Assembly: GCA_030390025.1 (NCBI GenBank)
Contig: CM059449.1
Location: 36,332,001-36,396,000, forward strand
DNA length: 64,000 nucleotides
Direction: 5' to 3'
Origin: Squalus acanthias
Taxonomy: Eukaryota
The translations under genes were made by a program, and so were the position numbers. Positions within the stretch are counted from its first letter, which is position 1; each line of letters starts with the position of its first letter. This document shows, in pieces, positions 750 through 61,662 of this stretch. Under the pieces are notes generated by a model. That model worked only from the letters and a program-made list of their open reading frames with translations, was not told where the DNA came from and did no database searches.

Positions 750-855
750 CTCTGTTTTTTCCTCCACATATAGATTAAAACTATAACGATAGCCAGCGAC
801 ACCAGTACACACACGACAATCAGCCCCACATGCTTGACTTTCTCTACTTTTCCTT
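750..855 (-). CDS. MHC class I-like heavy chain, exon 5 (connecting peptide + transmembrane); downstream exon(s) not found
   Basis: TTTTTCAG acceptor and GTAAGG donor. In frame with alpha3: EGKVEKVKHVGLIVVCVLVSLAIVIVLIYMWRKKQ, a hydrophobic run followed by the basic stop-transfer RKK. Not in the ORF track; read manually. Confidence 0.88.
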
Positions 856-1762
856 CTGAAAAATATTGGCAAGGGTTGTATAATTATATGTGCGGATCGA
901 CAGTTGTATATATAATCCGTGGAAATCTATGGCCCTGCTCATGGTAAGTAGGATGATGCGCTGTTTTATATGGACAGTATCCCTACACCATATAATGCAC
1001 AATGTATTATTTCATTAAGGTTTCTTTAAAGCCACAAACTTCACTTTTTGTGAATAAAGCACAGATTCTGGTCAAAGACAGGTGGTCAGGCTGTAAAGGT
1101 GACTGGGGGGTGGTGGAGGAAGAAGCAATGACTGTGAAGAATGAAGCATGGATTCTAGACTGATCGGGGCTGGGCCAGCGATAAGAATGTGCTGCTGGGA
1201 GGCCAGTGGAAAAGGGTTGTGGTCGTGGTGCTCAGCGAGGCAGGGGGAAAGCTAGCAGTCCTCTACCACGCAAACCCCCATGGATCGCTGTGTGAGGGGA
1301 GCCAGGTAGGAAAGTGGCAGAGGTCTGTGTCTGCGAGCCTGGTGAAAGGGGCAATATGAGGGGTAAGTAATGGCAGTTGAATAGATAATGCCACTGTGCC
1401 AGCTCCCAGGGCTGGGGGATCGAGCTTCTGACCGTCCCCGCAGCTCCGTGTGATGGGATGGGGCTCAAGGTGCAAAGTTTACATTTAATTCACACAGTTA
1501 AATGTTTGCCTTCTTTTACTTATCTACAGCAACATGGCTGCTGTCTCCAAAACCCAGACTGCTCCACAGTGCCACTCAGTGGTCAGAGTCTGTAACTGCT
1601 TACAGACTCCGTTTCTTTTATGCGAATTTTCAATGTCCTGCAAGAGCAGGTTTGTGGTATCGTTCAACAATAGGCGGCACCATATCATTTTCAATCTGTC
1701 ACCTAATGTAATGTTAGATTGGTGCAGCAGCTTCGGAATCTTAACCACAGTCACCATTTTCA

Positions 1763-2870
1763 AAATAGACAGATAGAAATCGCGAGATAGATAGATAGAG
1801 NNNNNNNNNNNNNNNNNNNNNNNNNNNNNNNNNNNNNNNNNNNNNNNNNNNNNNNNNNNNNNNNNNNNNNNNNNNNNNNNNNNNNNNNNNNNNNNNNNNN
1901 NNNNNNNNNNNNNNNNNNNNNNNNNNNNNNNNNNNNNNNNNNNNNNNNNNNNNNNNNNNNNNNNNNNNNNNNNNNNNNNNNNNNNNNNNNNNNNNNNNNN
2001 NNNNNNNNNNNNNNNNNNNNNNNNNNNNNNNNNNNNNNNNNNNNNNNNNNNNNNNNNNNNNNNNNNNNNNNNNNNNNNNNNNNNNNNNNNNNNNNNNNNN
2101 NNNNNNNNNNNNNNNNNNNNNNNNNNNNNNNNNNNNNNNNNNNNNNNNNNNNNNNNNNNNNNNNNNNNNNNNNNNNNNNNNNNNNNNNNNNNNNNNNNNN
2201 NNNNNNNNNNNNNNNNNNNNNNNNNNNNNNNNNNNNNNNNNNNNNNNNNNNNNNNNNNNNNNNNNNNNNNNNNNNNNNNNNNNNNNNNNNNNNNNNNNNN
2301 NNNNNNNNNNNNNNNNNNNNNNNNNNNNNNNNNNNNNNNNNNNNNNNNACAGAGAAAAACAGAGAGACAGGGAGAGAGACAGAGAGGGAGACTGAGACAG
2401 AGAGACAGAGAGAGAGACAGAGAGAGAGACAGAGATAGAGCCAGAGAGAGAGACAGAGCGAGGGAAAGACAGAGAGAGACAGACAGAGAGACAGAGAGAG
2501 AGAGAGACAGAGAGAGAGACAGACAGACAGACAGAGAGACATCCAGCCAGACAGACAGAGATATACAGACAGAGAGACAGACAGAGAGAGACAGTCAGAC
2601 NNNNNNNNNNNNNNNNNNNNNNNNNNNNNNNNNNNNNNNNNNNNNNNNNNNNNNNNNNNNNNNNNNNNNNNNNNNNNNNNNNNNNNNNNNNNNNNNNNNN
2701 NNNNNNNNNNNNNNNNNNNNNNNNNNNNNNNNNNNNNNNNNNNNNNNNNNNNNNNNNNNNNNNNNNNNNNNNNNNNNNNNNNTGGGACGGAGAGAGAGAG
2801 AGACAGAGAGAGAGACATATTTAGAGAGACAAGGAGACAGATAGAGAGAAAGACAGACAGACAGATCTGA
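1763..2870. repeat. (AGAG/AGAC/AGAT)n compound microsatellite with two N gaps (1801-2348, 2601-2782)
   Basis: Directly visible in the sequence. Confidence 0.95.
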
Positions 2871-4443: not shown

Positions 4444-4710
4444 CCCAGGAGACTGTTTTCCCACCCGGCAAGCTGCTGTGCTCAATATGACAGGAGTATT
4501 GTTTCCCATCATACGGATCAAATTCAAGGGTTGTCGTTAGTTGATACGTCCCATCGTGATTGGGTAATAGCCCAGTAGATTTGGTCTCAGGGGCATGTTC
4601 TCCATTCTTCAACCAGGTCACGCTGATGGACTGTGGATAAAATCCAGTCACAATGCAGTGGAGAAACCAACGATCAGCAGCCCTGGCAATAACTGAGACC
4701 TCAGGGGAAA
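4444..4710 (-). CDS. MHC class I-like heavy chain, exon 4 (alpha3 C1-set Ig domain)
   Basis: 267-nt phase 1-1 exon reading VSPEVSV...LHCIVTGFYPQSISVTWLKNG...LPNHDGTYQ...YSCHIEHSSL...VSW. Has the C1-set signatures CxxxGFYP and YxCxxxH. Confidence 0.97.
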
Positions 4711-4938
4711 CTACATGATAGAACGACAGTTATTTTCAACTTCAATAAAAGTCACACATTTCAAAACAGAATGAATGAAGTCATTTTAACTTTTGCCACT
4801 AATGTAAAACAGGTGATGTCGGATCAGCCGCCTGTTAAAGGAGAATGGGGAGAGGTTCATAACGGAAGCTGATCCAATATCGCCAGTTCTACACTATCTC
4901 CAAAATTTAAATTTACCCCCAGTTTGTTCTGAACTTAC

Positions 4939-5214
4939 CTTGTCTGGTTAGTGAAGCATTTCCAATTGAATAGTATATCCTCCATACATCCACACAGTCA
5001 TTTTCTAATAAGCTCTTGAAATAAAGATTCATCTTTGTTTCCTTATCCCATTTCACTTTGAAGGTCTGAGCTATTGGATCATGTACGGTCCAATCCAATT
5101 TGTCTTTATCGAAACTAAATGAGTATCTTCCATCATAAGCGAACTTCAAAACCCCTACACTAGGATTGGCATCATTCAGCTCACAGCCAAACAGTCCTTG
5201 AATGTAGTGAGTAC
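4939..5214 (-). CDS. MHC class I-like heavy chain, exon 3 (alpha2 domain)
   Basis: 276-nt phase 1-1 exon (the canonical class I alpha2 length) with AG/GTAAG boundaries. Reads THYIQGLFGCEL...FAYDG...AQTFKVKWD...LENDCV...YY, with both disulfide cysteines (C101/C164 equivalents). Confidence 0.95.
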
Positions 5215-6700: not shown

Positions 6701-6761
6701 CTTCCTGTTGTCACATTTTTATCAACCTTTGCCCATTATCAATTCCTCTGATTCCTGTTCA

Positions 6762-8077: not shown

Positions 8078-8088
8078 ATAAACATAAT

Positions 8089-8835
8089 AGGCCAGAAATT
8101 CGGCTCTTCGGCTTCCCGCGGGTGCAAGAATCGTGCGCGTACTTACATACCGCGCCTGCCGTTGTGCTTCGGGCCCACGTGGAATTCGGCTGCTGGGCCT
8201 CCTGCAGCTGCCGGCGTGCAGTGTTCGTGTATCCCAGGGGCGCAGTTTGTGCGAAGCGTCCCCTGGGATCACGTGGGCCATGGAGAGCCAATCGGAGCAG
8301 GGAATCTTCATTCACAGATTTGACAGGAAGACCTGTCAAATCTATGAATAGAGATCGGCCCCAAAACCTCACTAAAACTTCAAATAATTTTTAAAAAAGC
8401 ATCACATTTTTAAAATAACTATATATTACATAAATTAACTACTTTAAACAAAAATTTAAATTTTTGAAAAAATTAATTACACTTTTTAACTGTGCTAAAA
8501 ATAAACTTACCTTTCTTTAAAGTATGTAAAAAAGATAAACCTGTTGAAATTTTTTAAAATTGTACTTAATTCACCACTTACCTTGTTAAAAGCAGGCCTT
8601 GCGCCTCCTTTTTCCCCACGCAGCTTCTCCGTACTAACCCTCATGGAGAAACCTGAAAAAAAATTGAAGTTCGAGGTCTGAGCACTGCTTCTCCAGCGCA
8701 CGCGTTCGACCTCTGAACCCCTTCCTTCAGGGGAACGGAAGTTCCGGTTTCCAGCGCATGTGCAGTGCATGCGCAAAACCAGCACTTTCGTTCAGTCTAC
8801 GGGTGAGTACCCGTGGAGACCCGAATTTCTGGCCC
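8089..8835 (-). mobile_element. ~750-bp non-autonomous TIR element (PIF/Harbinger-like MITE), copy 1
   Basis: TIR GGCCAGAAATTCGG...CCGAATTTCTGGCC with flanks AAT/ATT. The interior is the reverse-complement homologue of the copies at 8888 and 29799. Confidence 0.8.
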
Positions 8836-9379
8836 ATTATGATTAGTTACATGTAAACCACCAGCAAAACAATTAAATAAACATAATGGCCCGAAAATTA
8901 GACCTAATACGTGAGAGTACGCACGGTATACTCTCACGTATTAGATCCCGAATTGCTGGTTTCCTGCATGCACTGCGCATGTGCGGGAAACCGGCACTTC
9001 GTGAATTGAAAAGGGGGCGGTTCCTAAGTGAACCGCGTGCGCGCTACAGGCTGTGCGCACGCAGTGCACTTAGTTTTTTTTCAGCTTTGAATGCGCAGGT
9101 AAGTGGTGAAGATTTTACACACAAAGAAAGCAGGCGTAGGACCCCCTTTTAACAAGGTAAGTAGTTAATTAAGTGTTATTTTAATTTTTTTTCAACAGGT
9201 TTATCTTTTTTAGAGACTTTAAAGAAAGGTAAGTTTATTTTTATAACTTCTAAAAAGATTTTAAATGTTTTCAAAAATTTAATTTTTTGTTTAAAGTGGT
9301 TAATTTATTTAACTATACTTATTTTATTAATGAGAAGTCGCACAACACCAGGTTATAGTCCAACAGATTTATTTAATTT

Positions 9380-9416
9380 TACAAGCTTTCGGAGCGGTTC
9401 GCTCCTTCCTCAGGAA
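9380..9416 (-). ncRNA. Minimal type I hammerhead ribozyme motif (PLE pLTR)
   Basis: Minus strand TTC-CTGAGGA-A-GGAGCG(AAC)CGCTCC-GAAA-GC-TT-GTA: CUGANGA and GAAA core, 6-bp stem II, palindromic AAGCTT stem III and weak stem I. Confidence 0.7.
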
Positions 9417-10995
9417 GGGTAGCAGTGAGAGAATCTCCCAGAATTCACAATATAGACACAGACAAAATCTATTCAAATCTTTCCCTACATCAAAGACACA
9501 CTAAGAGCACAGCCAAGACAATGAGATGTGTCCCAGGGGGTCCAACGTGTCAAAACACCTGCTGGCTGCATATCCTGTCAATTTGTGTTGGTTCTTGTGT
9601 TAGTCTTTTTAAAAAAAAACACCTGGAAAGACCGGCCATGATGTCAAGTCACGTTCTGTATCGTGACATGAACCCGATATCGCGATTGAGGCCATCCTCA
9701 TGAGTGCGGAACTTGGCTATCAGTTTCTGCTCTATGATTTTGCGCTGTCGTGTATCCCGAAGGCCGCCTTGGAGATCGCTTACCCGCAGATCCGAGGCTG
9801 AATGCCCCTGGCTGCTGAAGTGTCCCCGACTGGGAGGCAACCCTCCTGCCTGGCGATTGTTGCGCGGTGTCCGTTCATACGTTGTCTCAGTGTCTGCATG
9901 GTCTCGCCGATGTACCATGCTCTGGAGCATCCTTTACTGCAACGTATCAGGTAGACAACGTTGGCCGAGTCACATGAGTATGTACCGTGTACCTGGTGGG
10001 TAGTGTCCTCACGTGTGATGATGGTATCTGTGTCCATGATTTGGCATGTCTTGCAGAGGTTGCCGTGGCAGGGTTGTGTGGTGTCGTCGTTGCTGTTCTC
10101 CTGAAAGATGGGTAATCTGCTGCGAACGATGGTACTTTTGAGGTTAGGCGGCTGCTTGAAGGCGAGTAGTGGAGGCGTGGGGATGGCCTTAGCAAGGTGT
10201 TCGTCGTCATCGATGACATGTTGACTAACGAAGACTAACATAAGAACCAACACAAATTGACAGGATATGCAGCCAGCAGGTGTTTTGACACGTTGGACCC
10301 CCTGGGACACATCTCATTGTCTTGACCTCTGAACCCCTTCCTTCAGGGGAACGGAAGTTCCGGTTTCCAGCGCATGTGCAGTGCATGCGCAAAACCAGCA
10401 CTTTCGTTCAGTCTACGGGTGAGTACCCGTGGAGACCCGAATTTCTGGCCCATTATGATTAGTTACATGTAAACCACCAGCAAAACAATTAAATAAACAT
10501 AATGGCCCGAAAATTAGACCTAATACGTGAGAGTACGCACGGTATACTCTCACGTATTAGATCCCGAATTGCTGGTTTCCTGCATGCACTGCGCATGTGC
10601 GGGAAACCGGCACTTCGTGAATTGAAAAGGGGGCGGTTCCTAAGTGAACCGCGTGCGCGCTACAGGCTGTGCGCACGCAGTGCACTTAGTTTTTTTTCAG
10701 CTTTGAATGCGCAGGTAAGTGGTGAAGATTTTACACACAAAGAAAGCAGGCGTAGGACCCCCTTTTAACAAGGTAAGTAGTTAATTAAGTGTTATTTTAA
10801 TTTTTTTTCAACAGGTTTATCTTTTTTAGAGACTTTAAAGAAAGGTAAGTTTATTTTTATAACTTCTAAAAAGATTTTAAATGTTTTCAAAAATTTAATT
10901 TTTTGTTTAAAGTGGTTAATTTATTTAACTATACTTATTTTATTAATGAGAAGTCGCACAACACCAGGTTATAGTCCAACAGATTTATTTAATTT

Positions 10996-11032
10996 TACAA
11001 GCTTTCGGAGCGGTTCGCTCCTTCCTCAGGAA
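10996..11032 (-). ncRNA. Minimal hammerhead ribozyme motif, duplicated copy
   Basis: Identical to 9380-9416, offset by 1616. Confidence 0.7.
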
Positions 11033-12037
11033 GGGTAGCAGTGAGAGAATCTCCCAGAATTCACAATATAGACACAGACAAAATCTATTCAAATCTTTCC
11101 CTACATCAAAGACACACTAAGAGCACAGCCAAGACAATGAGATGTGTCCCAGGGGGTCCAACGTGTCAAAACACCTGCTGGCTGCATATCCTGTCAATTT
11201 GTGTTGGTTCTTGTGTTAGTCTTTTTAAAAAAAAACACCTGGAAAGACCGGCCATGATGTCAAGTCACGTTCTGTATCGTGACATGAACCCGATATCGCG
11301 ATTGAGGCCATCCTCATGAGTGCGGAACTTGGCTATCAGTTTCTGCTCTATGATTTTGCGCTGTCGTGTATCCCGAAGGCCGCCTTGGAGATCGCTTACC
11401 CGCAGATCCGAGGCTGAATGCCCCTGGCTGCTGAAGTGTCCCCGACTGGGAGGCAACCCTCCTGCCTGGCGATTGTTGCGCGGTGTCCGTTCATACGTTG
11501 TCTCAGTGTCTGCATGGTCTCGCCGATGTACCATGCTCTGGAGCATCCTTTACTGCAACGTATCAGGTAGACAACGTTGGCCGAGTCACATGAGTATGTA
11601 CCGTGTACCTGGTGGGTAGTGTCCTCACGTGTGATGATGGTATCTGTGTCCATGATTTGGCATGTCTTGCAGAGGTTGCCGTGGCAGGGTTGTGTGGTGT
11701 CGTCGTTGCTGTTCTCCTGAAAGATGGGTAATCTGCTGCGAACGATGGTACTTTTGAGGTTAGGCGGCTGCTTGAAGGCGAGTAGTGGAGGCGTGGGGAT
11801 GGCCTTAGCAAGGTGTTCGTCGTCATCGATGACATGTTGACTAACGAAGACTAACATAAGAACCAACACAAATTGACAGGATATGCAGCCAGCAGGTGTT
11901 TTGACACGTTGGACCCCCTGGGACACATCTCATTGTCTTGGCTGTGCTCTTAGTGTGTCTTTGATGTAGGGAAAGATTTGAATAGATTTTGTCTGTGTCT
12001 ATGTTGTGAATTCTGGGAGATTCTCTCACTGCTACCC

Positions 12038-13675: not shown

Positions 13676-13936
13676 TTGATGTTTGATTGTTCTGCTGCAA
13701 CCATCTATCAACCGGTCCCTTGATGAGTCCGTGGAAACCAGCTAGAGTACTTGTGTATTCGTCCCAGTAGCTTTTGTCAAATGCTTCCGCCATCCATTGC
13801 TGTCTTGGAACAGTTATTTTCATATTTTTGTCGTAATAGTCTATCTCACAGCCATCCAAAAGCCTCATAACACTGTACTCCGGCAGATCAGCAATCCCAT
13901 GGTTCAGGGTGTAGTAATATAACAGAGAGTGAGACT
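13676..13936 (-). CDS. MHC class I-like heavy chain, exon 2 (alpha1 domain)
   Basis: 261-nt phase 1-1 exon with a CTAG acceptor and GTGAGT donor. Reads ESHSLLYYYTLNHGIADLPEYSVMRLLDGCEIDYYD...PRQQWM...SYWDEYT...NNQTS, with the class I SHSL start, the YW motif and the N86-type sequon NQT. Confidence 0.95.
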
Positions 13937-15797: not shown

Positions 15798-15981
15798 GGC
15801 AGTCAGTGTAACCCGGACTAAACAAGAGGGCAGTCAGTGTAACCCGGACTAAACATCGGGGCAGTCATTGTATCCCGGACGAAACACGGGGCAGTCAGTG
15901 TAACCCGGACTAATTACGGAACAGGCAGTATAACCCGGACTAAACACGGGGGCAGTCGGTGTATCCCGGACTAAACCCGGG
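15798..15981. repeat. Minisatellite, 6 x ~30-31 bp (GGCAGTCAGTGTAACCCGGACTAAACACGGG) in MHC intron 1
   Basis: Six adjacent copies with no spacers. Confidence 0.95.
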
Positions 15982-18320: not shown

Positions 18321-18372
18321 CAGACAGGGCCGCTTGTAGGCGGAAGAAACTCAGTACAAGTGACAGAAACAT
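18321..18372 (-). CDS. MHC class I-like heavy chain, exon 1 (leader peptide)
   Basis: ATG at 18372 reads MFLSLVLSFFRLQAALS plus 1 nt, then the donor GTGAGT. Phase 1 joins in frame to the alpha1 exon. It sits in a GC/CpG-rich segment with CCAAT and TGACG motifs upstream. Confidence 0.85.
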
Positions 18373-18488: not shown

Positions 18489-18558
18489 CCAATCGCAGTA
18501 AAGATACGTCACTGATTGTTCAGGGCTGTCCCTGAACCGTGAGCAGCACCGAAACTGA
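18489..18558 (-). promoter_or_regulatory. Candidate MHC class I proximal promoter (partial ISRE, X2/CRE-like TGACGTA, Y-box ATTGG)
   Basis: The minus strand reads AGTTTCGG (near 18556), then CAGTGACGTA (TGACG 18511-18507), then GATTGG (CCAAT at + 18489-18493), 117-185 bp upstream of the ATG. Same order as class I ISRE-X2-Y modules; the X2-Y spacing is 13 nt. Confidence 0.55.
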
Positions 18559-24368: not shown

Positions 24369-24628
24369 TTGAACTGAGGTTCATCTGTTGTAACGTTCTG
24401 GAAACTTGCCCTTTCTGACTCCGTGGAAACTGGCTAGAGTAATTGTGAGTTCCTCACAGTAACTGGTGTCACAGAAAGTCACCATCCACTGATTCCTTGG
24501 AACCGTTATGCACATATTGCTGTCACAATAGTCTATCTCACAGCCATCCACAATCTCCATTTTACTATAGTCCGGAAGATGAGAACTCCCATGGTTCACT
24601 GTGTAGTGATGCATCAAAGAGTGAGAAT
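24369..24628 (-). pseudogene. Orphan MHC class I alpha1 exon (paralogue), frameshifted
   Basis: Intact AG and GTAAGT splice sites. Reads DSHSLMHHYTVNHG...DGCEIDY...ITVPRNQWM. It is 260 nt versus 261 in the intact exon; a 1-nt loss near 24409 gives TGA at 24383-24381. The alternative frame restores QVSRTLQQMNLSS, which aligns with PVDRWLQQNNQTS. No alpha2 or alpha3 exon was found downstream. Confidence 0.88.
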
Positions 24629-25640: not shown

Positions 25641-25751
25641 CCTTAACAGACTGATATGAAATCACCCTGTGGGGCGGTGTGACCCCATAACACACTGATA
25701 TGAAATCAACCTGTGGGGCAGTATGACCCCTTAACAGACTGATATGAAATC
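25641..25751. repeat. 44-bp tandem repeat, 2.5 copies
   Basis: CC(T/A)TAACA(G/C)ACTGATATGAAATC starts at 25641, 25685 and 25729. Confidence 0.9.
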
Positions 25752-25799
25752 TCCCATTCTTCGAGTTGTGTTTTGAACGTGGGTCCCCCGTGAGTGTTT

Positions 25800-44868: not shown

Positions 44869-45759
44869 TGATGGTATGCCAGAAAATGTGGAATGAAAGC
44901 TTTACAATAAGGCAATGCAGAGACAGTGGGCATCATTCAAACAGCGGAATATTAATCTACAGCCTAGACATATTCCCACAAGTAAAGGTAGCTCACCAAA
45001 AGCTGGAATTCCTAGAATGAGAATTGAAATAAAAATTAAGATGAGAGTTAAAAAAGCAAGTGACATTTCGAATGTAAAAGGAAATCAAACTGAAAAAAAA
45101 CAGACCGGAAAAGAAAAGATTAGAACTGGTAATAAGAAGTCTGAAGGAAGACTGGCAGGTAAATAGTAAAGGTTCTTAGGAACAGATTAAAAAAACAAAA
45201 TAATAGTTAAATAAAGGGAAGGATTCATTATAGAGCAAGGAAATAATCTTCTAGAGGAAGAAAGAATGTTAGAGATATAACAGAAACCAATATTCAGCCC
45301 CAATTTTCACCAAGGAATGCGATAGAGGGAGTGAAAGGATATAAGAGGAGGACATGGGTCGATTAGATTGGTCGTGTGACAGCTTCTGGAACCAGAAAAC
45401 AGGACAATATTGAGCAAATCCTGAAAGTTGTGGGCTAGTTAAGGAGAAGAAAAATCAATCTGTAAAAAGCAAGCGCTGTCAGCCAAATTTATAGTTATTT
45501 GAGGAAAAGCAAGAGGCAAATTTACTTTGACAGTCCTGTGTGTATTAATGAGTTATCACCTCTGTGAAGTTAGTGCACACAGGAATGTAGGGCAAATAGG
45601 TTAAAGTTCATCAGAGAGTGTCTCCGATCAGGAGTTCCACCCTCCTAATAGTCAAGAATCATTGTAGTAAAAGCAGCTGCCTGATCTGTTTGTTTAAAAG
45701 ACCGTAAGTAATGTCAGTTATTGTGTAACCTAATTGTCTCACTTGAGATTTCTCTGAGA

Positions 45760-45769
45760 TATAAATAAA
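45760..45769 (+). promoter_or_regulatory. TATA box of GPCR A
   Basis: TATAAATAAA 88 bp upstream of the ATG at 45848. Confidence 0.55.
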
Positions 45770-45847
45770 GGATTGGATTGAAGCGGCTTCATCTTCTTGT
45801 CAAACTGAGCTACTGCCTCCAGCACCGGCATCGTGTGACTCAAAGAG

Positions 45848-45917
45848 ATGGATCGACCAATCCTTGCCCAGATTGAAGCGGTTTACTACCCGATTCTCGC
45901 AGTGTTTGGTGTTCCTG
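45848..45917 (+). CDS. GPR139/GPR142-like class A GPCR 'A', exon 1 (N-terminus + most of TM1)
   Basis: ATG 45848 reads MDRPILAQIEAVYYPILAVFGVP plus G, then GTAAGT. Resembles the GPR139 TM1 pattern VYY..L...G.P. Phase 1 matches exon 2. Confidence 0.9.
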
Positions 45918-47598: not shown

Positions 47599-48509
47599 CG
47601 AATTTATTCACAATTGTGATTCTCTCCCGTGGAAAGTGCGGTCTCGCCACATGTATCACTCGATACCTGGTGGCCATGGCAGCAGCAGATCTACTGGTCC
47701 TGATATTTGATGTAATTCTGTATCAGATTAAAGAGATTTATTTCCCAAATTCATTCCTGGACTATACTCTCATCTGCTGTCTCAATCTCGGCCTGGCATT
47801 TTCTGCCACTGATTGTTCTGTCTGGTTAACCGTCGCCTTCACCTTTGATCGATTCATCGCCATTTCTTACCCGAAGCTGAGAGTCAAATATTGCACCGAA
47901 AAAACTGCGACTGTGATTATAACAACGGTGTGTGGTTTGAGCCTTTTACAAAACATTCCATTTTACTTTGTAAGTGAAGCTGGTGAAATAATTGATAACA
48001 TACAATGGTTCTGTGCTGTAAAATCTACCTTCTACACCTTTCCCATTTGGATGGCTTATCTCTGGCTCCAAATTATTTTAACCCCACTCGCTCCATTCGT
48101 GTTCATTGTACTGCTCAATGCTCTGACCATCAGGTTCATTGTACAGGCCAGTAGAGTCAGAAGGAGACTCCGAGGGAGCAAGAAGGGTGAGAGTCACAAT
48201 GATCCAGAGATGGAGAACCGAAGGAAATCCGTCATCTTATTGCTCGCAATTTCAGGCAGTTTTATCCTGCTATGGGTGGTAAATTTCCTCTATGAAATAT
48301 GTATACAAATTACAGATACTCATTTCTTCCGAACAGATTACGCAGATCCTTTTACCGTCATGGAACACAGCGGATATATGCTCCAGCGTTTGAGTTCCTG
48401 CACCAACACGGTTATTTATGCAGTGGCCCAGACTAAATTTAGAGATGCGTTAAAGAATGCGATTAAATATCCATTTGCTCAGATGATTAAGTTAATAAAA
48501 TTAAATTAA
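47599..48509 (+). CDS. GPR139/GPR142-like class A GPCR 'A', exon 2 (end of TM1 to C-terminus; spliced product 326 aa)
   Basis: Polypyrimidine-TTGCAG acceptor. Reads ANLFTIVILS...YLVAMAAADLLVL (TM2), SVWLTVAFTFDRFIAI (TM3, DRY-like), IPFY (TM4), LNALTI (TM5), SFILLW (TM6), NTVIY (TM7), KFR (helix 8). Stop TAA ends at 48509. Confidence 0.95.
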
Positions 48510-48540
48510 CAGCACTAAATTTAAACCACGATTCCCCATA

Positions 48541-50195: not shown

Positions 50196-53100
50196 TGTGT
50201 TGATTTTGATGTCACTTCCTTCCAAGTCTCTCGAGTCCCAATAACTGCCCAGAGCTGGTTCTCAGTCTCTGTGGGGCTTAAAGCTGCCGCTGGTGCATTG
50301 TGACAGTTTAAATGCTGCCGCCTGTCGGTAAATGTCCTCCACAGCAGAACTCCCACCTCATCACATCCAGTTCACTTAAGATGGCAGATTCGGGGCTCTG
50401 TTAATGAGCAATCAGATATTGTGGCCATGAATTTTAGTAACCATAGTAACCAGGCGCTATTAAAGGTGAAAAAGACAATTTGAAAACAATATTTCCTCAA
50501 CCTAATCCTTTCAACTCCCTGTCTGGGTTTAGCGTCATTGAGTGACGATTATTGTTCCATGCCACACTCTGCTGGCCAGTCTTCAGGTTGAGCCTTTCCT
50601 GTGAGTGCTGGCAGGCCATTGTAAAGTGGCCGATTGCAGCCCCACCCCCCCGCAACTTCTGCTCCTACTGAGACCAAATAACACAGCTCAGACCCCAGGG
50701 CTTGAACCTGGGGCCCTCTTGGTCTGGTTAAAGAAGAATTCCCACTTTGGTGTTCTGAGCACTGCCCAGGAGCACAGATTGTAAAACCACGCCATCAACT
50801 CCTGATTCTCCATCCACTATTTAATGGATGAAAATCTCAGCCTGGGAAGCCCCAGCACGAATTTCAATGTGTCGGCTGAGGCTCTGGGCCTCGTGTGTGG
50901 AGTCGGTGAATCAGCCCTGAGTTGTTTATAATGTGGGTGATTAAAACGAAATCAGTGGGAGTAAAATGAACCATTTGTGAACATGAATCATCTCATCATG
51001 TTTCTCGTAAATGTCTCAGAATGCATCAAGTATTTTGATGCGGTGAGTGATTTTATTTTGACGGTTATCCTGTACACCTCGGGATGTCACAAACAGCCTG
51101 GGCAGCTGTAGGGTTGAGCCAATAGACATCAGGTTAAGGGGAGAAGCGAAGGCCAGGTTTCCTGCTCCTACTTTTACTAAGCGTCTCTGTACATCTGATG
51201 AGGTGTGATTGATCTGAACTGGCCTCCACTTCTTGAATATCAAATGAAACTTAAGTCTATATGTTGTCCTTGTGTAGTTCTGGCCAGAATGGATGTTGGC
51301 AGATTTAGAGAGATGTGGGGTTAGATTATTATTTTTACTGCCTGGTTTGCACGCCCCTTACACAACCCAGCTGATCTCCTTGATTTATTTCAATGGTGTT
51401 TAATGCCCAGGCAGTAAAGATGAAAATATAACCATTATGTTTCTCAAATTCCCAATGGGCACACTATTTACAGAACGTCCAGTGCAGGTTTAGACAGATT
51501 TAAATATTGCCTGTGAGGAAAATTTAAGCATCATTTTCTACAATTTAGCTTGGCATCAACTTCTTTAATTCTGTCATGTTACACAAAAGTTTTAAATCCG
51601 CTTCTCTCACAGAAATCATATCCCACCCTTTCTTAAAACACTTTTTTGTTAGGATTGATCAGTTGGTCTCGGGTAACTTTGTTTGAGGAGATCCACTCAG
51701 TTCAAATACATACATGCTGTGTGATTTGTTCAGGGTTGCGGCTGCTTGGCTGGTGTTTCAATTTTAACAGAGATTTATTAATTCATGAAGCTTCATGGAA
51801 TTTAATGTTGGCACTTTTCAAATCCAAGCAAATTGTTGTGGATTGTTTCCAGTAAGCAGACTGAGCAGAATTGCCTGCTCCTGTGTCTAAGGTTCTTTTT
51901 AATCACCTGGGCACTGTGAATACAGGGGAACGGGCTGAGAGCGGTAAATGCCAAGAAGGGATCCTGCTCAATTTGTTGCCCATTTAAATCAATGGGCAGA
52001 CATTCGGCTGTGTTCATGAGGGGCTTGTGCTCCTTCTTCCCCAGTTTTCCTGTACTCACTGTTCTGAGGCAATCCAATAGCCCCGGGTACATGTACAGGA
52101 ACATCTAGCCCTCTCTGTCTGAGCATTTAAAAAGCTTTAGTTGAGACTGATAACATCCATATTTGATGAGAAAATATTAAAGGTATTGTAGAATAGAGCT
52201 TATCTGTATGATTTCATAATGTTTTAAATGTAATGCTGTTCTTAAAATGTCTATTATATATATAATAATGTATGTTAGAAGCATAAAACCTCTGTTACAA
52301 TACGTACAACCTTAGTTAAAAAGACACAAGGCTGAGAAGCAAAGCATGATGGTAAATTATGCCAACTTGATGTTATTCTGTAAAATGGTCTGTTATGTTA
52401 AAAAAAAGAAGCCAGTGAAGGACAAACATCAATTAAGGTTCAAAGTAAGATATGGAGGGTTTTCAACACCAACATCCCTTATCGCTGAAACTACAGACCA
52501 GGCTAGATAATGGGCGATGGGAAATGCAAAAGACACCTGTCGTAATTCGTGGGAAGTTTGTTTGTGTAAAAGTTCTCATAGAAAAGCTCATTCAGAAAAA
52601 GCGAGGGAATCATAGACCGTACTATTGCAGGTCAGGAATTAGCAATAAGAATACTGAGATAGCCAAAGCAGCTGCAGTTGCCAAGAATTTTGAGGGGAGA
52701 AAAAGGTATAAATGAACAGTTATTGAACACTAAAGGTAGCGTGAAACCAGAGGAAGAGAAACTTCAGTCAACAGAGCACAGCAGGACTGAGAAAAGAGAG
52801 CGCGCCGCACTCACCTGGTCTGTACGCTGCTGGGGTTCCAAGGAACAGATTGCGACAATCATCTTGTTAAGTATTATTTCTTTGTATTGGATGTTAAGTG
52901 CTTAATAAATCTGTTATACTTATACACAATATACCTGTACCAGGAGTGATCTATTATAGTCACGGACAATTTAAATATAAATTACGTATCTTACAGATCT
53001 CACGATCTTACACAATCACTGCATAAAAAAGATTAATTATAGTACAGTTTTACCACAAGACTTGCAAACGAATTACTTTCTCCAACACGATGCAACTGCT

Positions 53101-53355
53101 GTAAACATGTGTTAAATTATTGCTACTGTTCTCTTGTTCGATTAACAGTTGATAAATCTGTTTGGGGATTAAAGCTAAAACAATGTTTGGTGTAGTTTTA
53201 CTCGGCCACTTTACAACAACAGGAGAATCCCACTAATTTGCAAGATAGATAAAACAAATCTAAACCTCTCACTTTTTTATTTTGGTGATGCTGTTACATT
53301 GTTGCCCTTTAGTAACCCATTGGCCAACAAGTGGAAATAAGTTTTTCTGATATGT

Positions 53356-53615
53356 CATAAGAACATAAGAACATAAGAAATAGGAGCAGGAGTAGACCAA
53401 TCGGTCCCTCGAGCCTGCTCCGTCATTCAATGAGATCATGGCTGATCTGATCCAACCTCAACTCTAAAGAACAAAAAAAGTAGGAGCAGGACCCGGCCAC
53501 TCGGCCCCTGGGCCCGCTCCGCCACCCACAGGGCCTTGACCGATCTGAACTCAAACTCATGTCCAATTTCCAGCCCGCTCCACGTAACCCCTGATTCCCT
53601 TTACTTCTAGGAAAC
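53356..53615 (-). mobile_element. CR1 3' end with doubled 3' UTR (same subfamily as 40633-43714)
   Basis: Reverse-complement match to ~43460-43714. Confidence 0.9.
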
Positions 53616-55505
53616 GGTCTGATCCAAACTCTTCATAATTTTGAACTCCTCTATCAGATCCCCACAAAACCTGTTGCATTAACTCCTTATATGTAAAGCT
53701 GATGCTGATCACAAATATATCCTGGAACATTGAATAGCCGTCATCCCTTGGGGTTAATACATGGAGAGTCAGGATCAAGTGCATTCTTCAAGTGAAGCAA
53801 AGCTGGACATTCGGAGGTTTAATGGACCAAGCAACACCGATATAATTCAATCCCAGTTTTATAGTCCTGCATTATGCTCTTATTTTTATGTGTTATTATA
53901 AATTCTGATATCTATATTTGTATTGGAAACTATGGAGCGTGAAATCGGGTCGGGTGTAAAACAGGCATCAGACCTGAACCAACTCCATTCCCACCAGGTG
54001 GCTAAGGTTAAAATCGGCGCTGCTATCACCATCTTTTGTGGGGCGCTACAAGTTAAAATTACCTCCTAAATGCTTCTGAAAACCATGGTGGTGAATTGAC
54101 TTCCATGCAGAAGCAAATCGGGCGGAGTGTAATAGGAACATAGAACATTTGAACATAGGAACAGGAGTAGGACATTCAGCCCTTCGAGCCTGCTCTGCCA
54201 TTCAATGAGATCATGGCTGATCTGCGACCTAACTCCATATACCCGTTTTTGCCCCATATCTCTAAATAGATTTGGTTAACAAAAAGCTATTAATCTCCGA
54301 TTTAAAATTAACAATTGATCTAGCATCAATTGCCGTTTGTGGAAGAGAGTTCAAAATTTCTACCAACTTTTGTTTCCTAATTTCACTTATGAAAGTTTTG
54401 GCTCTAATTTTCAGACTGTACCCCCGAGTCCTAGAATCACTTTCTCTCTATCTAACCTATCCGTTTCCCTTAATATCCTGAAAACTTCAATCAGATCATC
54501 CTTAACCTTCTAAATTCAAGGGAATAGAACCCTAATTTGTGTAATCTCTCCTCGTAATTTAAACCTTGAAGTCCGAGTATCATTCTGTTAAGCCTACGCT
54601 GCACACCCGCCAAGACCAATATATCCTTCCTAAGGTGTGGTGCCCAGAACTGCTCACAGTACTCCAGGAGTGGTCTAACCAGTGTTTTGTACAGCTGAAG
54701 CATAACTTCTACCCCCTGGTACTCTCGGCCTCTGGATATAAAGGACAGCATTCCATTAGCCTTTTGGATTATTTTCTGTACCAGTTCATGACATTTTAAT
54801 GATCTATGTACCTTGACCCCCCAAGTCTGTTTGGACATCCACTGTTTTTAGCTTTTCACCATTTAGAAAGTAACCTGTTCTATCGTGTTTAAGTTCAAAG
54901 TGGATGACCTCACATTTGCTTACATTGAAATCCATTTGTCACAGATTTGCCCATTCACTTAATCTATCTACAACCATTTGTAATTAAATGCTTTCTTCTA
55001 CACTGCGTACAATGCCGCCTATCTTTGTATCATCAGCAAATTTGGATATATGACTTTCTATCATCTAAGTCGTGAATAAATATTGTGAATAGTTGAGGCC
55101 CCAAAACAGATCCCTGTGGGACACCACTAGTCACAGCCTGCCAATTTGAGTAGCTACCCATTATCCCTACTCTCTGTCTCCTGCCGCTCAGCCAATTTCC
55201 TAACCAGGTCAATAATTTGCCCTCAATTCCGTGGGCTTCTACCTTAGATAACAGTCTCTAATGTGGGACTTTATCAAATGCCTTCTGGAAGTCCATATAA
55301 ATCACATCCATAGACATTCCCCTCTCCACTATGGCACCTCTTCAAAAAATTCCATCAGGTTTGTCAGACTCGACCTAACCTTTCACAATTCCATGCTGGC
55401 TCTCTCTGATCAACTGAAAGTTTTCGAGGTGTTCAGTCACCCTATCCTTAATTAAAGACTCCAGCAATTTCCCACCAACAGATGTTAGGCTAGCTGGTCT
55501 ATAAT

Positions 55506-56978
55506 CTTGGACACCAACGCCCCTCCGGAGCCTTCTCCCCCTTCACTTCCCTCTGATCCCATCCGTTCTTCCAATCTCACCCCTGCCGTGTTTTCACTAT
55601 CCTTTCTGATCTTTCCTTCTCTGACCCCGAACGGTCATTCCTCAGCAAAAGCCTGAGTTTCATCCCCTTACGCCCACATCTCGAATTTCGAGCACGGCAC
55701 GATGCTGAGCTCTCCATATCTTTTCATTGTTAACTGCCGGCGTGACATCAGCCGTATCAATTTCTCTGCTCCCTTCACTCACTCCAACCTACCTCCCTCT
55801 GAACTTGCACCACTCCGTTCTCTCCGATGCAACCCTAACATTGCCAGTAAACCTGCTGACAAGGGTGGTGCTGTTGTTGTTTGGCGAACCATTCTCTACC
55901 GTGCGGAGGCTGAATGCCAACTCTCTGACACCTCCTCCGACCTCCCATTGGACTATGACCCCATTACCAAACATCAAGCCATTGTTTCAAAGACTGTCAC
56001 TGACACATCTCCTCTGTAGATCTTCCCTCCATGGCTGTCAACCTCATAGTCCCCCAACCTCGCACAGCCTACTGCTACCTACTTCCCAGTATCCTCAAAC
56101 AGGACTGCCCTGGTAGACCCATCGTTTCAGCCTGCTCTTGCCCCACGGAACTGATTTCTTCCTATCTCGCCTCTATTTTTTCTCCCCTTGTCCCGTCTCT
56201 TCCCACCTACATTGCCGACTCTTCTGACGCCCTCCGCCTCTTTAACAGATTCCAGTTTCCTGGCCCCAATCGTCTCCTTTTCACTATGGACTTGCAATCA
56301 CCTCTACACCCCCATTCCCCACCAGGACATCCTGAGTGCGCTCCGCTTCTTCCTTGAACAGAGGCAATACCAGTCCCCATCCACCACCACCCTTCTCTGC
56401 CTGGCTGAACTTGTTCTCACATTGAACAACTTCTCCTTTGGCTCCACTCACTTCCTCCAAATTAAAGGTGTTGCTTTGGGAACCCGCATGGGCCTGCCTT
56501 TTCGTGGGATACGTGGAACATCCTTTGTTCCAGTCCTACTCAGGCTCCCTCCCTCAAATATAGGTGCTGTTTCCTGCTTTCGCCCTGAACTAGAAAAATT
56601 CATTCACTTTGCTCCCAATTTGCAGCCTTCTGGACTCAACATCGAGTTCATCAATTTCAGACTATAACTCCAGCCCTCAGTTTTTTAAGGCGGCAGCTGT
56701 CGATGATTCTGCCATCTCCATTTGCAACATTTAATCTCTCCTGCCTTCCATGCTAGCAAAAACTATCCCTTTAGTTCCTTCCTCCCCTTCCCCGCCCTTT
56801 CCCTGCCTCTTAACCTGCTTAAAACCTGTTACATCCCTAACTTTTTCCAGTTCTGACGAAGGGTCACAGACCTGAAATGTTAACTCAGTTTCTCTATCCA
56901 TGGATGCCGAGTGTTTCCAGCATTTTCTGTTATTATTTCAGATTTCTAGCATCTGCAGTATTTTGCTATTGTATTGTG
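55506..56978 (+). mobile_element. Penelope-like element family 2 (RT fragments, internally deleted), 11-bp TSD
   Basis: PLE RT motifs KPADKGGAVVVW, PGRPIVS, FTMD..LYTPIP and QIKGVALGTRMG, with C-terminal LQPSGLNIEF. TGGTCTATAAT is duplicated at 55495-55505 and 56979-56989. Confidence 0.92.
56849..56885 (+). ncRNA. Minimal hammerhead ribozyme motif (PLE family 2)
   Basis: AGTT-CTGACGA-A-GGGTC(ACA)GACCT-GAAA-TG-TT-AACT: 4-bp stem I and intact core. The stem III palindrome has decayed from ACGT to ATGT. Confidence 0.7.
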
Positions 56979-57494
56979 TGGTCTATAATTGCCTCGTTTC
57001 CCTCTCTCGACATCCTTAAAGTGCAGAGTGAGATGCACAATTTTCCAATCTAAAGTGACGGTTACTGAATCTAAAGAACTCTGGAAGATTATAGTTAGGG
57101 CACCTGCAATATGGTCACCTACTTCCTTTAAACCCTGGGAAAGGAAACCATCTGGCCCTATGGATTTCTCACACTTAAGTGCCATTATTTTCTTCATTAC
57201 TGCTATTTTGCTTTAGTTAATTTTATTTAGCCCCTGGCCCCGATTCAATATTAGTTTCTTTGGGATTTCTAGCATGATATCCTCTTCTTCTACTGTAAAT
57301 ACTGACGCAAAGTAATTATTCAGCATTTCCCCATTGTCATTGACAATATCACCACTTTCAGATTTTAAGGGACCAACATAGCTCATGACCACACTTTTTT
57401 TCTAATAAAGCTGTAAAAATTCTTCATAGCTCTTGTCTCAGATCCAAATCTCTGTCAAGAGTGGAAACGTAAGCTTTGTGCACTGCAGTTTGTA

Positions 57495-58332
57495 CATAAG
57501 AACATAAGAAATAGGAGCAGGAGTAGGTCATTCGGCCCTTCGAGCCTGCTCTGCCATTCAATGAGATCATGGCTGATCTTCGGCCTCAACTCCATTCACC
57601 AGCCCTATCACCATATCCCTTGATGCCTTTACTGGCCATAGAGTTATACATCACAGAAAGAGGCCCTTTGGCCCATCGTGTCCGCGCCAGCCATCAAGCC
57701 CTGTCTATTATCTACTTCTGTTTTGAATATACCCAATGACTGATCCTCCACAGCCCTCTGGTGTAGAGAATTCCAAAGATTCACCAACATCTGTGTGAAG
57801 AAATTTCTGCTCATTTCAGTCCTGAATGGCCTACCCTTTACCCGGAGGCTGTGGCCCCTGGTTCTTGACTCCCCAACCAAGGGAAACATTCTCCCAGCAT
57901 CCATCCTATCAAGCCCTGTAATAATTTTGTATGCTTCAATGAGAGCCCCTCTCATTCTTCTGAATTCAAGAAAATACAGGCCGATTTTACTCAATCTCTT
58001 CTCATACGACAGTCCCGCCATCCCTGGAATCAATCTCGTGAACCTTCGTTGCACTCCCTATATGGCAAGTATATCCTTCCTTAGGATTGTACACAGTACT
58101 CCAGGTGTGGTCTCACCAAGGCCCTATATAATTGGAGTAAGACTTCTTTACTCCTGTACTCAAATCGTCTTGTAATGAAGGCCAACATACCATTGTCCTT
58201 CCTAATGGCTTGCTGCACCTGCACTTGCACTTTCAGTGACTCATGTACAAGGACACCCAGGTCCCCTTGAGCATCTGCATTCCCCAATCTTTCACCATTT
58301 AGCAAATACTCTGCCTTTCTGTTTTTTCTACA
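57495..58332 (-). mobile_element. CR1 LINE 3' fragment(s)
   Basis: QRRFTRLIPGMAGLSYE and [15 protein letters not shown], with a CATAAGAA tail. Confidence 0.88.
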
Positions 58333-58559
58333 AACATAGCATTGGAAATACCTGTGACTGTACGGCCATACCATATCGCAGTTTATCTATCGTCTGTGTT
58401 TGATGTGTGAAACGGTATTAACCTTTCCTCCAGTTCTCGTAACTGATAAACGTTTTTGAAAAAGCTACAAACAGATGAATTAAAGTCTATCATTGATTTG
58501 TACTTTTTATCTCCTTGTTTTTGAACGGGCCAATAGTACCAGCAAAGAAGATGAGTTTC

Positions 58560-58698
58560 AATAGCAAAATACAGCGGCTGCTGGAATCTGAAATAAAATC
58601 AGAAAATGCTGGAAATAATCAGCAGGTCAGGCAGCATCTGTGGAGAGAGAAACAGAGTTAACGTTTCAGGTCATGACCCTTCATCAGAAAGTTCTGAC
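58560..58698 (-). mobile_element. Solo pLTR fragment of PLE family 2 with a hammerhead core (58656-58690)
   Basis: Reverse-complement match to 56850-56975. The minus strand reads TT-CTGATGA-AGGGTCATGACCT-GAAA-CG-TT-AACT. Confidence 0.8.
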
Positions 58699-59750
58699 AG
58701 AGCAGTTCCCGGTTGAGAAGCGCGGGGAATCAGTCAGCGCCGATTCTGATCTTGCAGCTGGTTAGGCAGCGGGCGGGATGCATTCCCGGGGAGTCTGAAG
58801 TGCGCCTACATTGCGCCAGTGTTTTTGTGGCGCTGGAGGGTGCTTTCTATTTCTCCTGTATTAACAAATATATAAAAGAAAATTCCTTCGTCTTTTCTTG
58901 AGCAGGCTCCTGGAATCCGTTTCAGAATTGCTGGTTTGGGGACTCGATCCGATTTTAATACTTGTCCCAGACACAGAACTACAAGACTGTCTGTCAAGGC
59001 CGGGGCAATCCCACTAAATTGCTGAATTTAAATAGTCAGAGTAAATTGTGGTTCCTTCTATTAGTTACATTAAAAATATGATAGAAACTTTGGTCATTTT
59101 GAGTTATTTCTTTGATGCCGGTAATTACAAACTGCAAATAAAACACATCAAAACAAAACAGATGATATCATTACACCGACAGCAGGAACGCTGACACAGT
59201 GAAGCACTATTAAAGATTAGCATTAGCTGATTATAAGCGGCTTACAGGGGAGACCAACTATTGCAAGAATCGGATAGTAAATGTTCTCTATCTGTATGAT
59301 CACCGGCTGTCCCATATTCGGAGAGAAGCAACGTTACCAATTAGTTTTGTGGACTCGCAGAACATCTGCTTTCAAAATAAGTTCTTATTTATACCTGAGA
59401 GAAACCTCAACTGACCATGAGCATTACATAATGATTGGCATTAGTTACAGTCATTTGAACAAACAGATTTAAGGCGAGTCATATTCACTGCTACTGATCA
59501 GGGATATTGTGCAATGATATTGTCCGTTCAAAGAGTGAGGAGTCAAGAATATTATTGTCATCATACGTTCCAAACAAAGTATTGCGACATCTCCATTACT
59601 AAAGTAATGGTGCAAGACTCCTGAAGCTGAGGATATTTATTTATAGATTCATGCGAGGCATTTGATGTAAGAATTGTGCATATTTTGATGGATTCGCTTT
59701 CTCTAGATCTTAGTTACTTCAAGAATGTTCTCTACCTTCTTTAATCTATA

Positions 59751-59902
59751 TAAAGATTTGAATACATTTTTTTTGTGTTTATATTGTGAATTCTGGGAGA
59801 TTCTCTCACAGCTATTCTACCTGAGGAAGGGGCGACAGCTCCGAAAGCTTGTAATTTTAAATAAATCTGTTGGACTATAACCTGGTGTTGTGCGACTTCT
59901 CA
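59751..59902 (+). mobile_element. 152-bp PLE family 1 pLTR-only insert with a 14-bp TSD
   Basis: Matches 11972-12123. TTCTTTAATCTATA is duplicated at 59737-59750 and 59903-59916. Confidence 0.9.
59818..59853 (+). ncRNA. Minimal hammerhead ribozyme motif, fully paired
   Basis: TAC-CTGAGGA-A-GGGGC(GACA)GCTCC-GAAA-GC-TT-GTA: stem I TAC/GTA, stem II with one G-U pair, and the AAGCTT palindrome. Confidence 0.75.
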
Positions 59903-60781
59903 TTCTTTAATCTATACTATATATAATTTATATTAAATGGCCTCAATGCTACAGATGAGTTTGAAGAACATTCAGATACACACTGAAAGTGATATAGTCT
60001 GTTGTATATAGCTGAGCCGTCCCACAGATATGCAGCAATGTTAGATTACTGGAGGTATTAACAGACCTTGCGCGGAACTAAAAGAGGGATTAACGGTGAG
60101 ATGGACATTTGTCCACTCGAATGTCATTTGAATAAACCCTCTAAAACGCTTGGCCGTACATGATCATTTAATTTCATTAAATTCCATTGTTCCCATCGTA
60201 GTGATGACTTTAACTGTGCAGACCATCAGTCTGTCTAAAAATATATATCATATAATCTTTATGGAGTTTTCTTTGTCTTTGTCCGTTCCTGTGTTTGTAA
60301 ATCCGCAATGCGGATTCCGCCCACTAAGGGGCACAATGGACATATCTGTTAGTGGATCCGCAACACCGGTTTACACCAGGAAAGACAGATGGAAAGCTAG
60401 CCCACGATGTGTATGGAGGGACAGGGATAAACCACTCAGTCACCCTTTTCGATTTTTTGCATCTAGCCGGACATTCCAGAAGAGAACTGAAAATCTGGTG
60501 GATTCAAAAGCGGCCGGCAGTGGGAAAAGTCCATTTTTGGTCCGGTAGAAAGTTGAAAATCCAACCATGTCATTCACTGCAGCATTTTTTGCTTTCATGA
60601 AACTCAGAATAAGTTAGCGACATGTATCAGAATTCCAAGGATCATCTGATAGAATGGCAGAAATAAAGAGAGAGATTTTAGTGATAAGAAAATATTCCAT
60701 GAAATTCATTAAAAAAAACTCTTGACCGATCATCCTCTCAGCGTAAGGAGAATTAGTAATTTAATTTACAATTTTTTGCAG

Positions 60782-61662
60782 CTAATTTGGTGACACTCGT
60801 CATTCTCTCCCGTGGAAAGTGCGGTCTCTCCAAATGCATCACCCGATACCTGGCTGTCATGGCAGCGGCTGATCTAATGGTCCTGATATTTGATGTAATT
60901 CTGTATGAGATTAACGATGCTTATTTCCCACATTCATTCCTGAACTATACTCCAATTTGTAGTCTCAATCTCGTCCTGCTTTATGTTTCCATTGATTGCT
61001 CTGTCTGTCTAACTGTGGCTATCACCTTTGATCGATTTGTCGCTATTTGTTACCAAACGTTACGATCAAAATATTGCGCCGAAAAAACTGCAACTGTGGT
61101 GATAGCAGTGGTGTGCTCCTTAAGCGTTTTAGAAAATGTTCCATTGTACTTTGTATATGAACCTCGGGAAATAATTGACAATGAACCATGGTCCTGCTCT
61201 GTAAAATCAAGCTGCTACACATTACCCATGTGGATAGCATTTTTGTGGTTAGAAACCATTTTAACCCCATTTGCTCCATTATTGTTGATCGTGCTGCTCA
61301 ATCCCCTGACCATCAGGCACATTGTACTGGCCAATAGAATCAGGGGTGGTCTCCGAGCAAACAACAAAGTTCAGAATCACACTGATCCAGAGATGGAGAA
61401 CCGAAGGAAATCAATCATAATACTTCTCGCTACATCTGGGAATTTTATAGTTTTCATATGTGTGCAATTTACAGACACTCAATTTTTAGAAGCAAATTAC
61501 AACGACTCTTTCACCATTGCGGAACAATCCGGGTATATGCTTATGTGTTTGAGTGCTTGCATAAACACGTTTATTTATGCAGAGTCTCAGAGCAAATTCA
61601 GAGTGGAATTAAAGAATATGATTAAGCGCCCCCTGGTTCTCATTAATAATTTAATCAAATAG
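60782..61662 (+). pseudogene. GPR139/GPR142-like GPCR 'B', exon 2 only; open frame but probably defective
   Basis: TTTTTTGCAG acceptor in phase 1, reading ANLVTLVILSRGKCGL..., collinear with paralogue A. A 24-nt in-frame deletion in TM6 (SGNFI--------VFICVQ vs SGSFILLWVVNFLYEICIQ) removes the TM6 Trp. Also W to C in TM3, A to P in TM5 and V to E after TM7. No exon 1 was recognised between 48510 and 60781. Confidence 0.75.

Follow-up and report, generated by a model that had tools for sequence, protein, structure and literature searches.

Linkage of the class Ib gene UGA with an elasmobranch receptor subfamily in a likely segment of the major histocompatibility complex of Squalus acanthias

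The stretch of Squalus acanthias DNA analysed here, 64,000 nucleotides of contig CM059449.1 (positions 36,332,001 to 36,396,000) and called the window below, holds a class I gene belonging to the major histocompatibility complex (MHC) on its minus strand and an intact gene for a G-protein-coupled receptor (GPCR) of class A on its plus strand. As judged from its sequence, the class I gene belongs to UGA, a class Ib lineage already known from sharks and linked to their MHC, and the window probably comes from the class Ib region of the elasmobranch MHC. Placement of the proteins in other assemblies indicates that the linkage of UGA with one subfamily of receptors is real and old; it likely predates the divergence of sharks from rays. 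We consider it probable that UGA and the receptors are ancient co-residents of the MHC that work separately and turn over by birth-and-death duplication.

Linkage of UGA and receptors across sharks and rays

Both gene families were followed through other elasmobranch assemblies with a synteny proxy built on protein look-ups. UGA was placed in 17 species, 14 of which also had a placed receptor of the window subfamily, and in 11 of these 14 both genes shared a contig. Among the best 120 of 2,613 receptor relatives, 52 of the 90 proteins from UGA-placed species lay on the UGA contig. Scattering of the receptors over the genome, with no enrichment near class I, had been named beforehand as an outcome that would speak against a meaningful neighbourhood. 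The family does indeed form clusters elsewhere, but the window subfamily is strongly concentrated: with Heptranchias perlo left out, 51 of 57 receptors were on the UGA contig against 0/75 when a member of a different subfamily served as control query (119 labelled rows, 1 unnamed one dropped; 0/96 with H. perlo). The original prediction had also asked whether this class I lineage and the receptors adjoin each other repeatedly, and on the MHC chromosome. Within the limits of the proxy they do. The 11 of 14 species and the class Ib-region identity of the lineage, together with the sawfish gene table and the Heptranchias scaffold described below, support repeated residence of the subfamily on the MHC chromosome alongside class Ib genes.

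The receptor trees set apart 102 rows, among them the two receptors of the window and, from sharks and rays alike, 49 of the 52 proteins placed on UGA contigs. This split had a support (SH-aLRT, a likelihood ratio test) of 100 in one tree and 0.998 in another, with midpoint rooting only. At closer range, the accession order on a 529,794-bp scaffold of Heptranchias runs GPCR (..247), UGA (..249/250), GPCR (..251), GPCR (..252). In the skate Rhinoraja, UGA accessions (..153, 184, 208, 227, 232) interleave with near-identical receptors (..176, 181, 185, 206, 207, 230, 234, 237, 238), an order that suggests co-duplication of blocks holding both genes. Ten UGA cluster members of Rhinoraja longicauda (P0012, P0141-P0149) have widely spaced accessions on one chromosome; elsewhere UGA is called single- or low-copy.

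For the sawfish, the gene table of MHC chromosome 34 within PMC10751288 contains 13 'receptor 139' genes. Ten of them stand in tandem at 13.38-13.68 Mb, on mixed strands, with class Ib genes on either side and B2M, the beta2-microglobulin gene, at a distance of 0.3 Mb; the other three adjoin C4 or TRIM39, not class I. The sawfish UGA orthologue lies on a 19,913,265-bp contig that matches this chromosome (last gene at 19.83 Mb), and its accession is 49 away from MHC-Ia. Accession order suggests that it belongs to the class Ib group at 14.0-14.2 Mb, 0.35-0.5 Mb from the receptor cluster. This group is on the same strand as the nearest receptor, so the divergent layout of the window would not be conserved. 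In the reedfish MHC-chromosome table of the same source the name 'receptor 139' does not occur, the 13 rows that bear it all being from the sawfish, which is a weak sign of an elasmobranch-specific cluster. The corresponding white shark table gives no gene names by which receptors could be recognised. A further sheet there, 'Catshark chr37', lists the chromosome that the paper's own table calls chr13.

The class I gene and its surroundings in the window

The original prediction of a non-classical class I gene was borne out: all three extracellular domains are closest to PDB entry 9CH4, titled 'Crystal structure of shark nonclassical MHC class I, UGA'. The alpha1 exon (13676..13936, minus strand, as are all exons of this gene) matched chain 9ch4_A at E=5e-42, with the next chain at 5.5e-12 and 64 of 86 residues identical by eye (74%). 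For alpha2 (4939..5214, Pfam MHC_I), 9ch4_A was the sole chain at E<=1e-14 (9.8e-43), and for alpha3 (4444..4710, Pfam C1-set) it scored 1.2e-41 with a runner-up at 1.4e-28. The entry's title was retrieved by way of the AlphaFold model of the Pristiophorus orthologue, which was poor (predicted local distance difference test, pLDDT, 56.7) and served for nothing else. By eye, alpha1 and alpha3 of 9CH4 equal the nurse-shark UGA query in the PMC10751288 supplement; the alpha1 rows of UAA, UBA, UCA, UDA and UFA given there differ by eye, and these identities were rejected. An alpha1 protein search returned 13 shark and ray clusters of 63-84% identity among 30 candidates, with no chimaera protein among the 13. 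The Callorhinchus sequence labelled UGA in that same supplement looks, by eye, very unlike the alpha1 rows of shark and skate UGA. Over the ectodomain, the window gene is 61-86% identical to 20 shark and ray orthologues. Its nearest named relatives, at 85-86%, are from Pristiophorus, as is that of the intact receptor (84%).

A classical class Ia (UAA) assignment was also rejected on the peptide anchors. Of the eight peptide-anchoring residues (HLA-A2 numbering), five are kept by eye (Y7, Y59, K146, W147, Y171), and positions 84, 143 and 159 are Q, F and L. Incomplete classical anchors, the alpha1 identity to nurse shark and the same exon plan are what the window gene has in common with the crystallised lineage, from which it differs by the substitutions G25R and Q75P and by a decayed alpha1 duplicate upstream. 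According to the available text of PMC12562908, which refers to a personal communication, UFA and UGA are CD1-like molecules that bind lipids and are encoded by few, MHC-linked copies. Class Ib genes of the shark MHC and UGA itself are already known (PMC10751288). On the class I side the original candidacy for an undescribed system is weakened by the lineage having been both named and crystallised.

The gene follows the class I plan of leader, alpha1, alpha2, alpha3 and transmembrane (TM) exons with phase-1 introns. Its five exons comprise 320 codons without a stop, and all internal exons are bounded by AG and GT with phase-1 junctions. The leader exon (18321..18372, 52 nt, ATG at 18372, GT donor) is near-identical to that of the Pristiophorus orthologue (P0002), and the TM exon is at 750..855. 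A YxxPhi motif stands at the C-terminal end of 15 of 20 aligned orthologues. None of the 21 acceptor candidates in positions 1-749 yields the YxxPhi tail of the family, and the cytoplasmic-tail exon is probably off-window. At columns invariant among orthologues the window gene has 1 private change, inside the range of 0-7 seen in the 20 orthologues. A promoter module of MHC type (X1-like, X2/CRE, Y box; 18489..18525, minus strand) lies 121-153 bp upstream of the ATG, with the X2-Y part at 121-139 bp, as scored against the X1/X2/Y consensus, and the observed/expected CpG ratio there is 0.77 compared with 0.53 window-wide. The X2-Y pattern is not rare by itself, with 2 matches in the window against 0.8 expected and 2 reached by 18 of 100 shuffles, so the module counts by its position only.

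Two class I units had been described originally, one intact and one decayed. The intact gene stands, and the second unit shrinks to a lone frameshifted alpha1 pseudo-exon (24369..24628, minus strand, 260 nt). It is 73% identical to the intact alpha1, has a 1-nt deletion near its 3' end and matches a single PDB chain, 9ch4_A (2e-23). No second leader, alpha2, alpha3 or TM exon was recovered in the window by tblastn, blastn or a six-frame profile search, and a second complete gene was rejected. Some room for a hidden class I piece is left by a gap of 180 N, which is situated 150 bp upstream of the pseudo-exon.

The diverging arrangement of class I gene and receptor with 27.5 kb between the ATGs was confirmed for the intact pair, whose start codons are 27,476 bp apart. 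At this spacing the divergent orientation carries no weight. Bidirectional gene pairs start within about 1 kb of each other and use one common promoter. Such a pair was ruled out here by the distance, by the repeat-like DNA that makes up about 48% of the interval separating the two ATGs (18373-45847) and by the separate proximal promoters. The interval contains remnants of LINE (long interspersed nuclear element) reverse transcriptases with Pfam RVT_1 matches at 39246-40358 (minus strand) and 41631-43514 (plus strand, 628 aa open). The latter is part of a LINE at 40992-43514 whose endonuclease and reverse-transcriptase frame is nearly intact (212 aa plus 628 aa with a single stop between); it inserted fairly recently, at a point 2.3 kb upstream of GPCR1, the intact receptor gene. 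Minisatellites were found at 25644-25755 (44 bp x 2.5) and, in UGA intron 1, at 15798-15981 (31 bp x 6). Within the alpha1-alpha2 intron of UGA, a 1,616-bp tandem duplicate (8708-10324, 10324-11940) is 100% identical and is either very recent or an assembly artefact. It includes a decayed GIY-YIG-like element, presumably of the Penelope type. The window carries three N gaps in all, and no tRNA or Rfam match was found in it.

The receptor genes and their family

The intact receptor gene, GPCR1, encodes a two-exon class A orphan receptor of 327 aa. Its exon 1 (45848..45917, plus strand) covers a short N-terminus and the start of TM1, and exon 2 (47599..48510, plus strand) matches Pfam 7tm_1 at 2e-19. 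At 89 strongly conserved columns it shows 4 changes, against a family median of 3. The second receptor, GPCR2, has a decayed exon 2 (60782..61662, plus strand; 62% aa and 75% nt identity to GPCR1) with an open frame, an 8-codon in-frame deletion in TM6 and 7 changes at the same columns (rank 96 of 102). This exon is cut off from its own exon 1, which together with the promoter likely lies inverted at 59246..59468 on the minus strand (promoter 59468-59385, exon 1 59315-59246). Of the two plus-strand units described originally, one decayed, GPCR1 and the decayed exon 2 are therefore as stated, while the promoter and exon 1 of GPCR2 are likely on the other strand. The arrangement may stem from an inversion, from a deletion between two head-to-head copies or from misassembly; among 24 inverted pairs in 52000-62500, none convincingly brackets the inverted exon.

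Upstream of GPCR1, a conserved proximal promoter block with a TATA box (45690..45775, plus strand) is 79% identical over 86 nt to 59468-59385, so that the two paralogues are more alike there than in their coding nucleotides (75%). It contains a forkhead-like site, and it may define the tissue in which the family is expressed. The X2-Y module was not found at the receptor promoters. A 23-nt match with 20 shared positions (14 nt exact) connects 19080-19058, about 690 bp upstream of UGA, with 45706-45728 in the block. None of 500 resampled sequences reached it and it was the best of 60 window tiles, scoring 31 against 28 for the next tile, with E=0.07 for the whole window; in the second receptor promoter it is poorly kept. 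The match may have arisen by chance, be an element common to both genes or be what is left of a receptor promoter since lost.

The label 'GPR139-like', under which the receptors were first described, may hold for distant kinship and fails for orthology. GPCR1 has relatives in 2,613 clusters at 90% identity, and the best 120 of these are nearly all elasmobranch and named 'probable GPCR 139'. Searched as a single sequence against solved structures, GPCR1 matched human GPR139 at 6.7e-8, barely ahead of galanin receptor 2 at 1.5e-7. A profile of 36 sequences brought GPR139 to 1.9e-18, five orders of magnitude ahead of the next structure (3.8e-13), and with this profile at least 150 representatives at 50% identity outscored human GPR139. 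A search at 50% clustering gave 139 matches at E<=1e-30. True GPR139 has two exons and is 70% identical between human and zebrafish (PMC7318219, in the part consulted). With their weak single-sequence score and many copies, set against that conservation and a single-copy gene, the window receptors are by sequence not GPR139 orthologues. What they have in common with the GPR139/GPR142 group is the closest solved human receptor by profile, two exons and a short N-terminus; what separates them are the multi-copy clusters and the narrow lead over galanin receptor 2. The best description, inferred from these comparisons, would be an elasmobranch-expanded distant branch of the group, for which PMC6504862 notes extra fish subtypes and, in the text available, leaves sharks unmentioned. 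Atlas neighbours of the window receptor were GPR139-, FMRFamide-receptor- and Srw-like clusters. In Pfam at E<=0.01, both window receptors matched 7tm_1 and weakly Srx, with no olfactory receptor, V1R or V2R match, and these three identities were rejected.

Most sampled members of the family sit in large clusters on chromosomes other than that of UGA. The horn shark (Heterodontus) has 69 distinct receptors on at least 6 contigs among 233 sampled proteins. A second large subfamily (P0130, P0171-P0286) is more conserved, with up to 84-86% identity between sharks and rays, and clusters on other chromosomes; 28 of its proteins are on one 59.5-Mb Heterodontus chromosome. Faster evolution of the MHC-side subfamily was considered and rejected, as the best ray-shark identity of 0.72 compared with 0.77 elsewhere is too small a difference and depends on sampling.

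Explanations of the linkage and their meaning

Ancient co-residence would explain the linkage as follows. UGA is predicted to be a beta2-microglobulin-bound, CD1-like lipid presenter that is expressed under an MHC-type promoter and routed through endosomes by its YxxPhi tail. The receptors might form a repertoire of small-molecule or peptide sensors with a shared TATA-type, tissue-specific promoter, a role proposed because they are kin to the amino-acid-sensing GPR139/GPR142 group. We propose that the linkage has lasted because both kinds of gene duplicate and decay in place. Tandem or segmental duplication would sometimes copy UGA and receptors together, as in Rhinoraja, and such joint duplication would account for one intact and one decayed copy of each gene with no need for the two to interact. 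Separate function is suggested by the distance, repeat content and different promoter types of the two window genes. It is further suggested by the sawfish, where three of 13 receptors lie by C4 or TRIM39 and strands are mixed, and by the residence of most of the family on other chromosomes.

Several points weigh against this reading. The synteny proxy used contig sizes and accession order, not aligned DNA, and the receptor sample was the best 120 of 2,613 relatives (118 labelled rows, 2 unnamed ones dropped). Three of the 17 UGA species had no receptor among these matches. The three misses of the proxy, Chiloscyllium punctatum, C. plagiosum and Scyliorhinus canicula, belong to one subclade and contributed 1-2 proteins each. 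In five species, four rays and a catshark, sharing says little, as the chromosome concerned measures 187-229 Mb. The UGA scaffold of H. perlo, a small one, bears only 1 of the 33 receptors listed for this species, and 16 are on a 21-Mb chromosome that bears copies more than 90% identical. Neither B2M, BRD2 nor any other MHC marker was found within the 64-kb window. The window gene itself may, from its sequence, be an impaired allele or contain a sequencing error, since G25R and Q75P are non-conservative and affect alpha1 positions conserved in nearly all orthologues. Finally, the long retention, the apparent co-duplication in Rhinoraja and the 23-nt match could point to selection on the linkage.

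Such selection might act without any contact between the gene products. MHC-resident receptors in leukocytes or barrier epithelia would sense microbial or host metabolites and be co-regulated with class Ib genes, and would be kept in the MHC much as butyrophilin and TRIM genes are. In both sharks and rays one subfamily does keep its place on the contig of UGA, and the sawfish receptors have class Ib, C4, TRIM39, butyrophilin and CEACAM-like genes as neighbours. Birth-and-death turnover, which is typical of immune receptor families, also fits. The one local observation in favour, the 23-nt match, is short, leads narrowly, reaches a modest window-wide E value and is poorly kept at GPCR2, and the receptor promoters lack a detectable X2-Y module; we regard this selected immune linkage as rather unlikely. 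A functional MHC unit, in which the subfamily and lipid-binding UGA would be co-duplicated, share a cis element and act in the same immune or sensory cells, appears unlikely to us. At the other extreme, the neighbourhood could be chance or an artefact, with a widespread family landing beside a class I gene in one gappy scaffold. The three N gaps, the identical duplicate and the inverted exon do hint at an imperfect assembly, and the family is widespread enough to occupy at least 6 Heterodontus contigs. Yet the neighbourhood recurs in independent assemblies and the control subfamily never fell on the UGA contig, by which this explanation is largely refuted already and hardly credible.

The least supported explanation is a chemosensory module like that of mouse M10 and V2R, where UGA would be co-expressed with the receptors, escort them or load their ligands in the way that M10/M1 and beta2-microglobulin serve V2Rs, or where the receptors would read MHC-dependent odour cues. 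M10/M1 and V2R genes are not known to be linked to each other, so linkage would be no mark of such a system. The size and rapid turnover of this repertoire of short receptors of class A, the old linkage and the interleaving of multi-copy UGA with receptors in Rhinoraja would suit a module of this kind, for which the M10/V2R precedent is described in the accessible part of PMC12294341. Against it, the receptors are of the 7tm_1 type and have none of the olfactory, V1R or V2R Pfam matches, and UGA has an MHC-type promoter and, in orthologues, a CD1-like tail. In most species, moreover, UGA is low-copy next to dozens of receptors that are mostly on other chromosomes. Catshark olfaction is attributed mainly to V2Rs in PMC11979771, whose top-50 brain-plus-olfactory list, as far as given in the text consulted, is without a GPCR. 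Nothing in the window analysis supports a chemosensory partnership, and we hold it to be very improbable.

How do these genes compare with MHC-linked receptors elsewhere? The mammalian MHC carries linked clusters of olfactory receptor genes. Common to both are a tandem cluster of class A receptors, birth and death, and proximity to class Ib, TRIM, butyrophilin and tRNA genes. The shark family, however, is unrelated and intron-containing, and a sensory role for it would be hypothetical. With mouse H2-M10/M1 and V2R the likeness is that of a non-classical class I gene alongside a receptor repertoire, but what marks the mouse system is that class I and class C receptors are expressed together and associate, whereas the shark case consists in linkage with class A. 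In PMC10751288, the account of the class Ib region in the elasmobranch MHC, the receptors are tabulated, but GPCR, G-protein and olfactory terms occur zero times in the main text, and the sawfish MHC table has no olfactory or vomeronasal names. We found no literature that deals with these elasmobranch receptors as a family or with their linkage to the MHC, in a search that left most subscription journals outside, including the likely primary UGA papers. The accessible parts of PMC12294341, PMC10620051 and the supplements of PMC11057056 likewise contain nothing on either. A receptor cluster in the shark MHC is thus apparently undescribed.

Of the analogous, independent neighbourhood of class Ib and orphan GPCR genes first supposed, the old linkage in sharks and rays remains, and GPR139 orthology and the novelty of the class I gene do not. 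What has apparently not been reported is a tandem receptor cluster in the vertebrate MHC that looks most ancestral, formed by a family unrelated to the mammalian MHC olfactory receptors. Hundreds of database entries give members of this family the wrong name 'GPR139', and it constitutes a sizeable receptor repertoire in animals thought poor in class A chemoreceptors. With it there are two independent instances in which to ask if receptor repertoires are drawn to the MHC for function or if families that duplicate are merely tolerated there. If UGA and the receptors did form a functional unit, it would be an independent and much older counterpart of the MHC-linked olfactory receptors or of the M10/V2R pairing.

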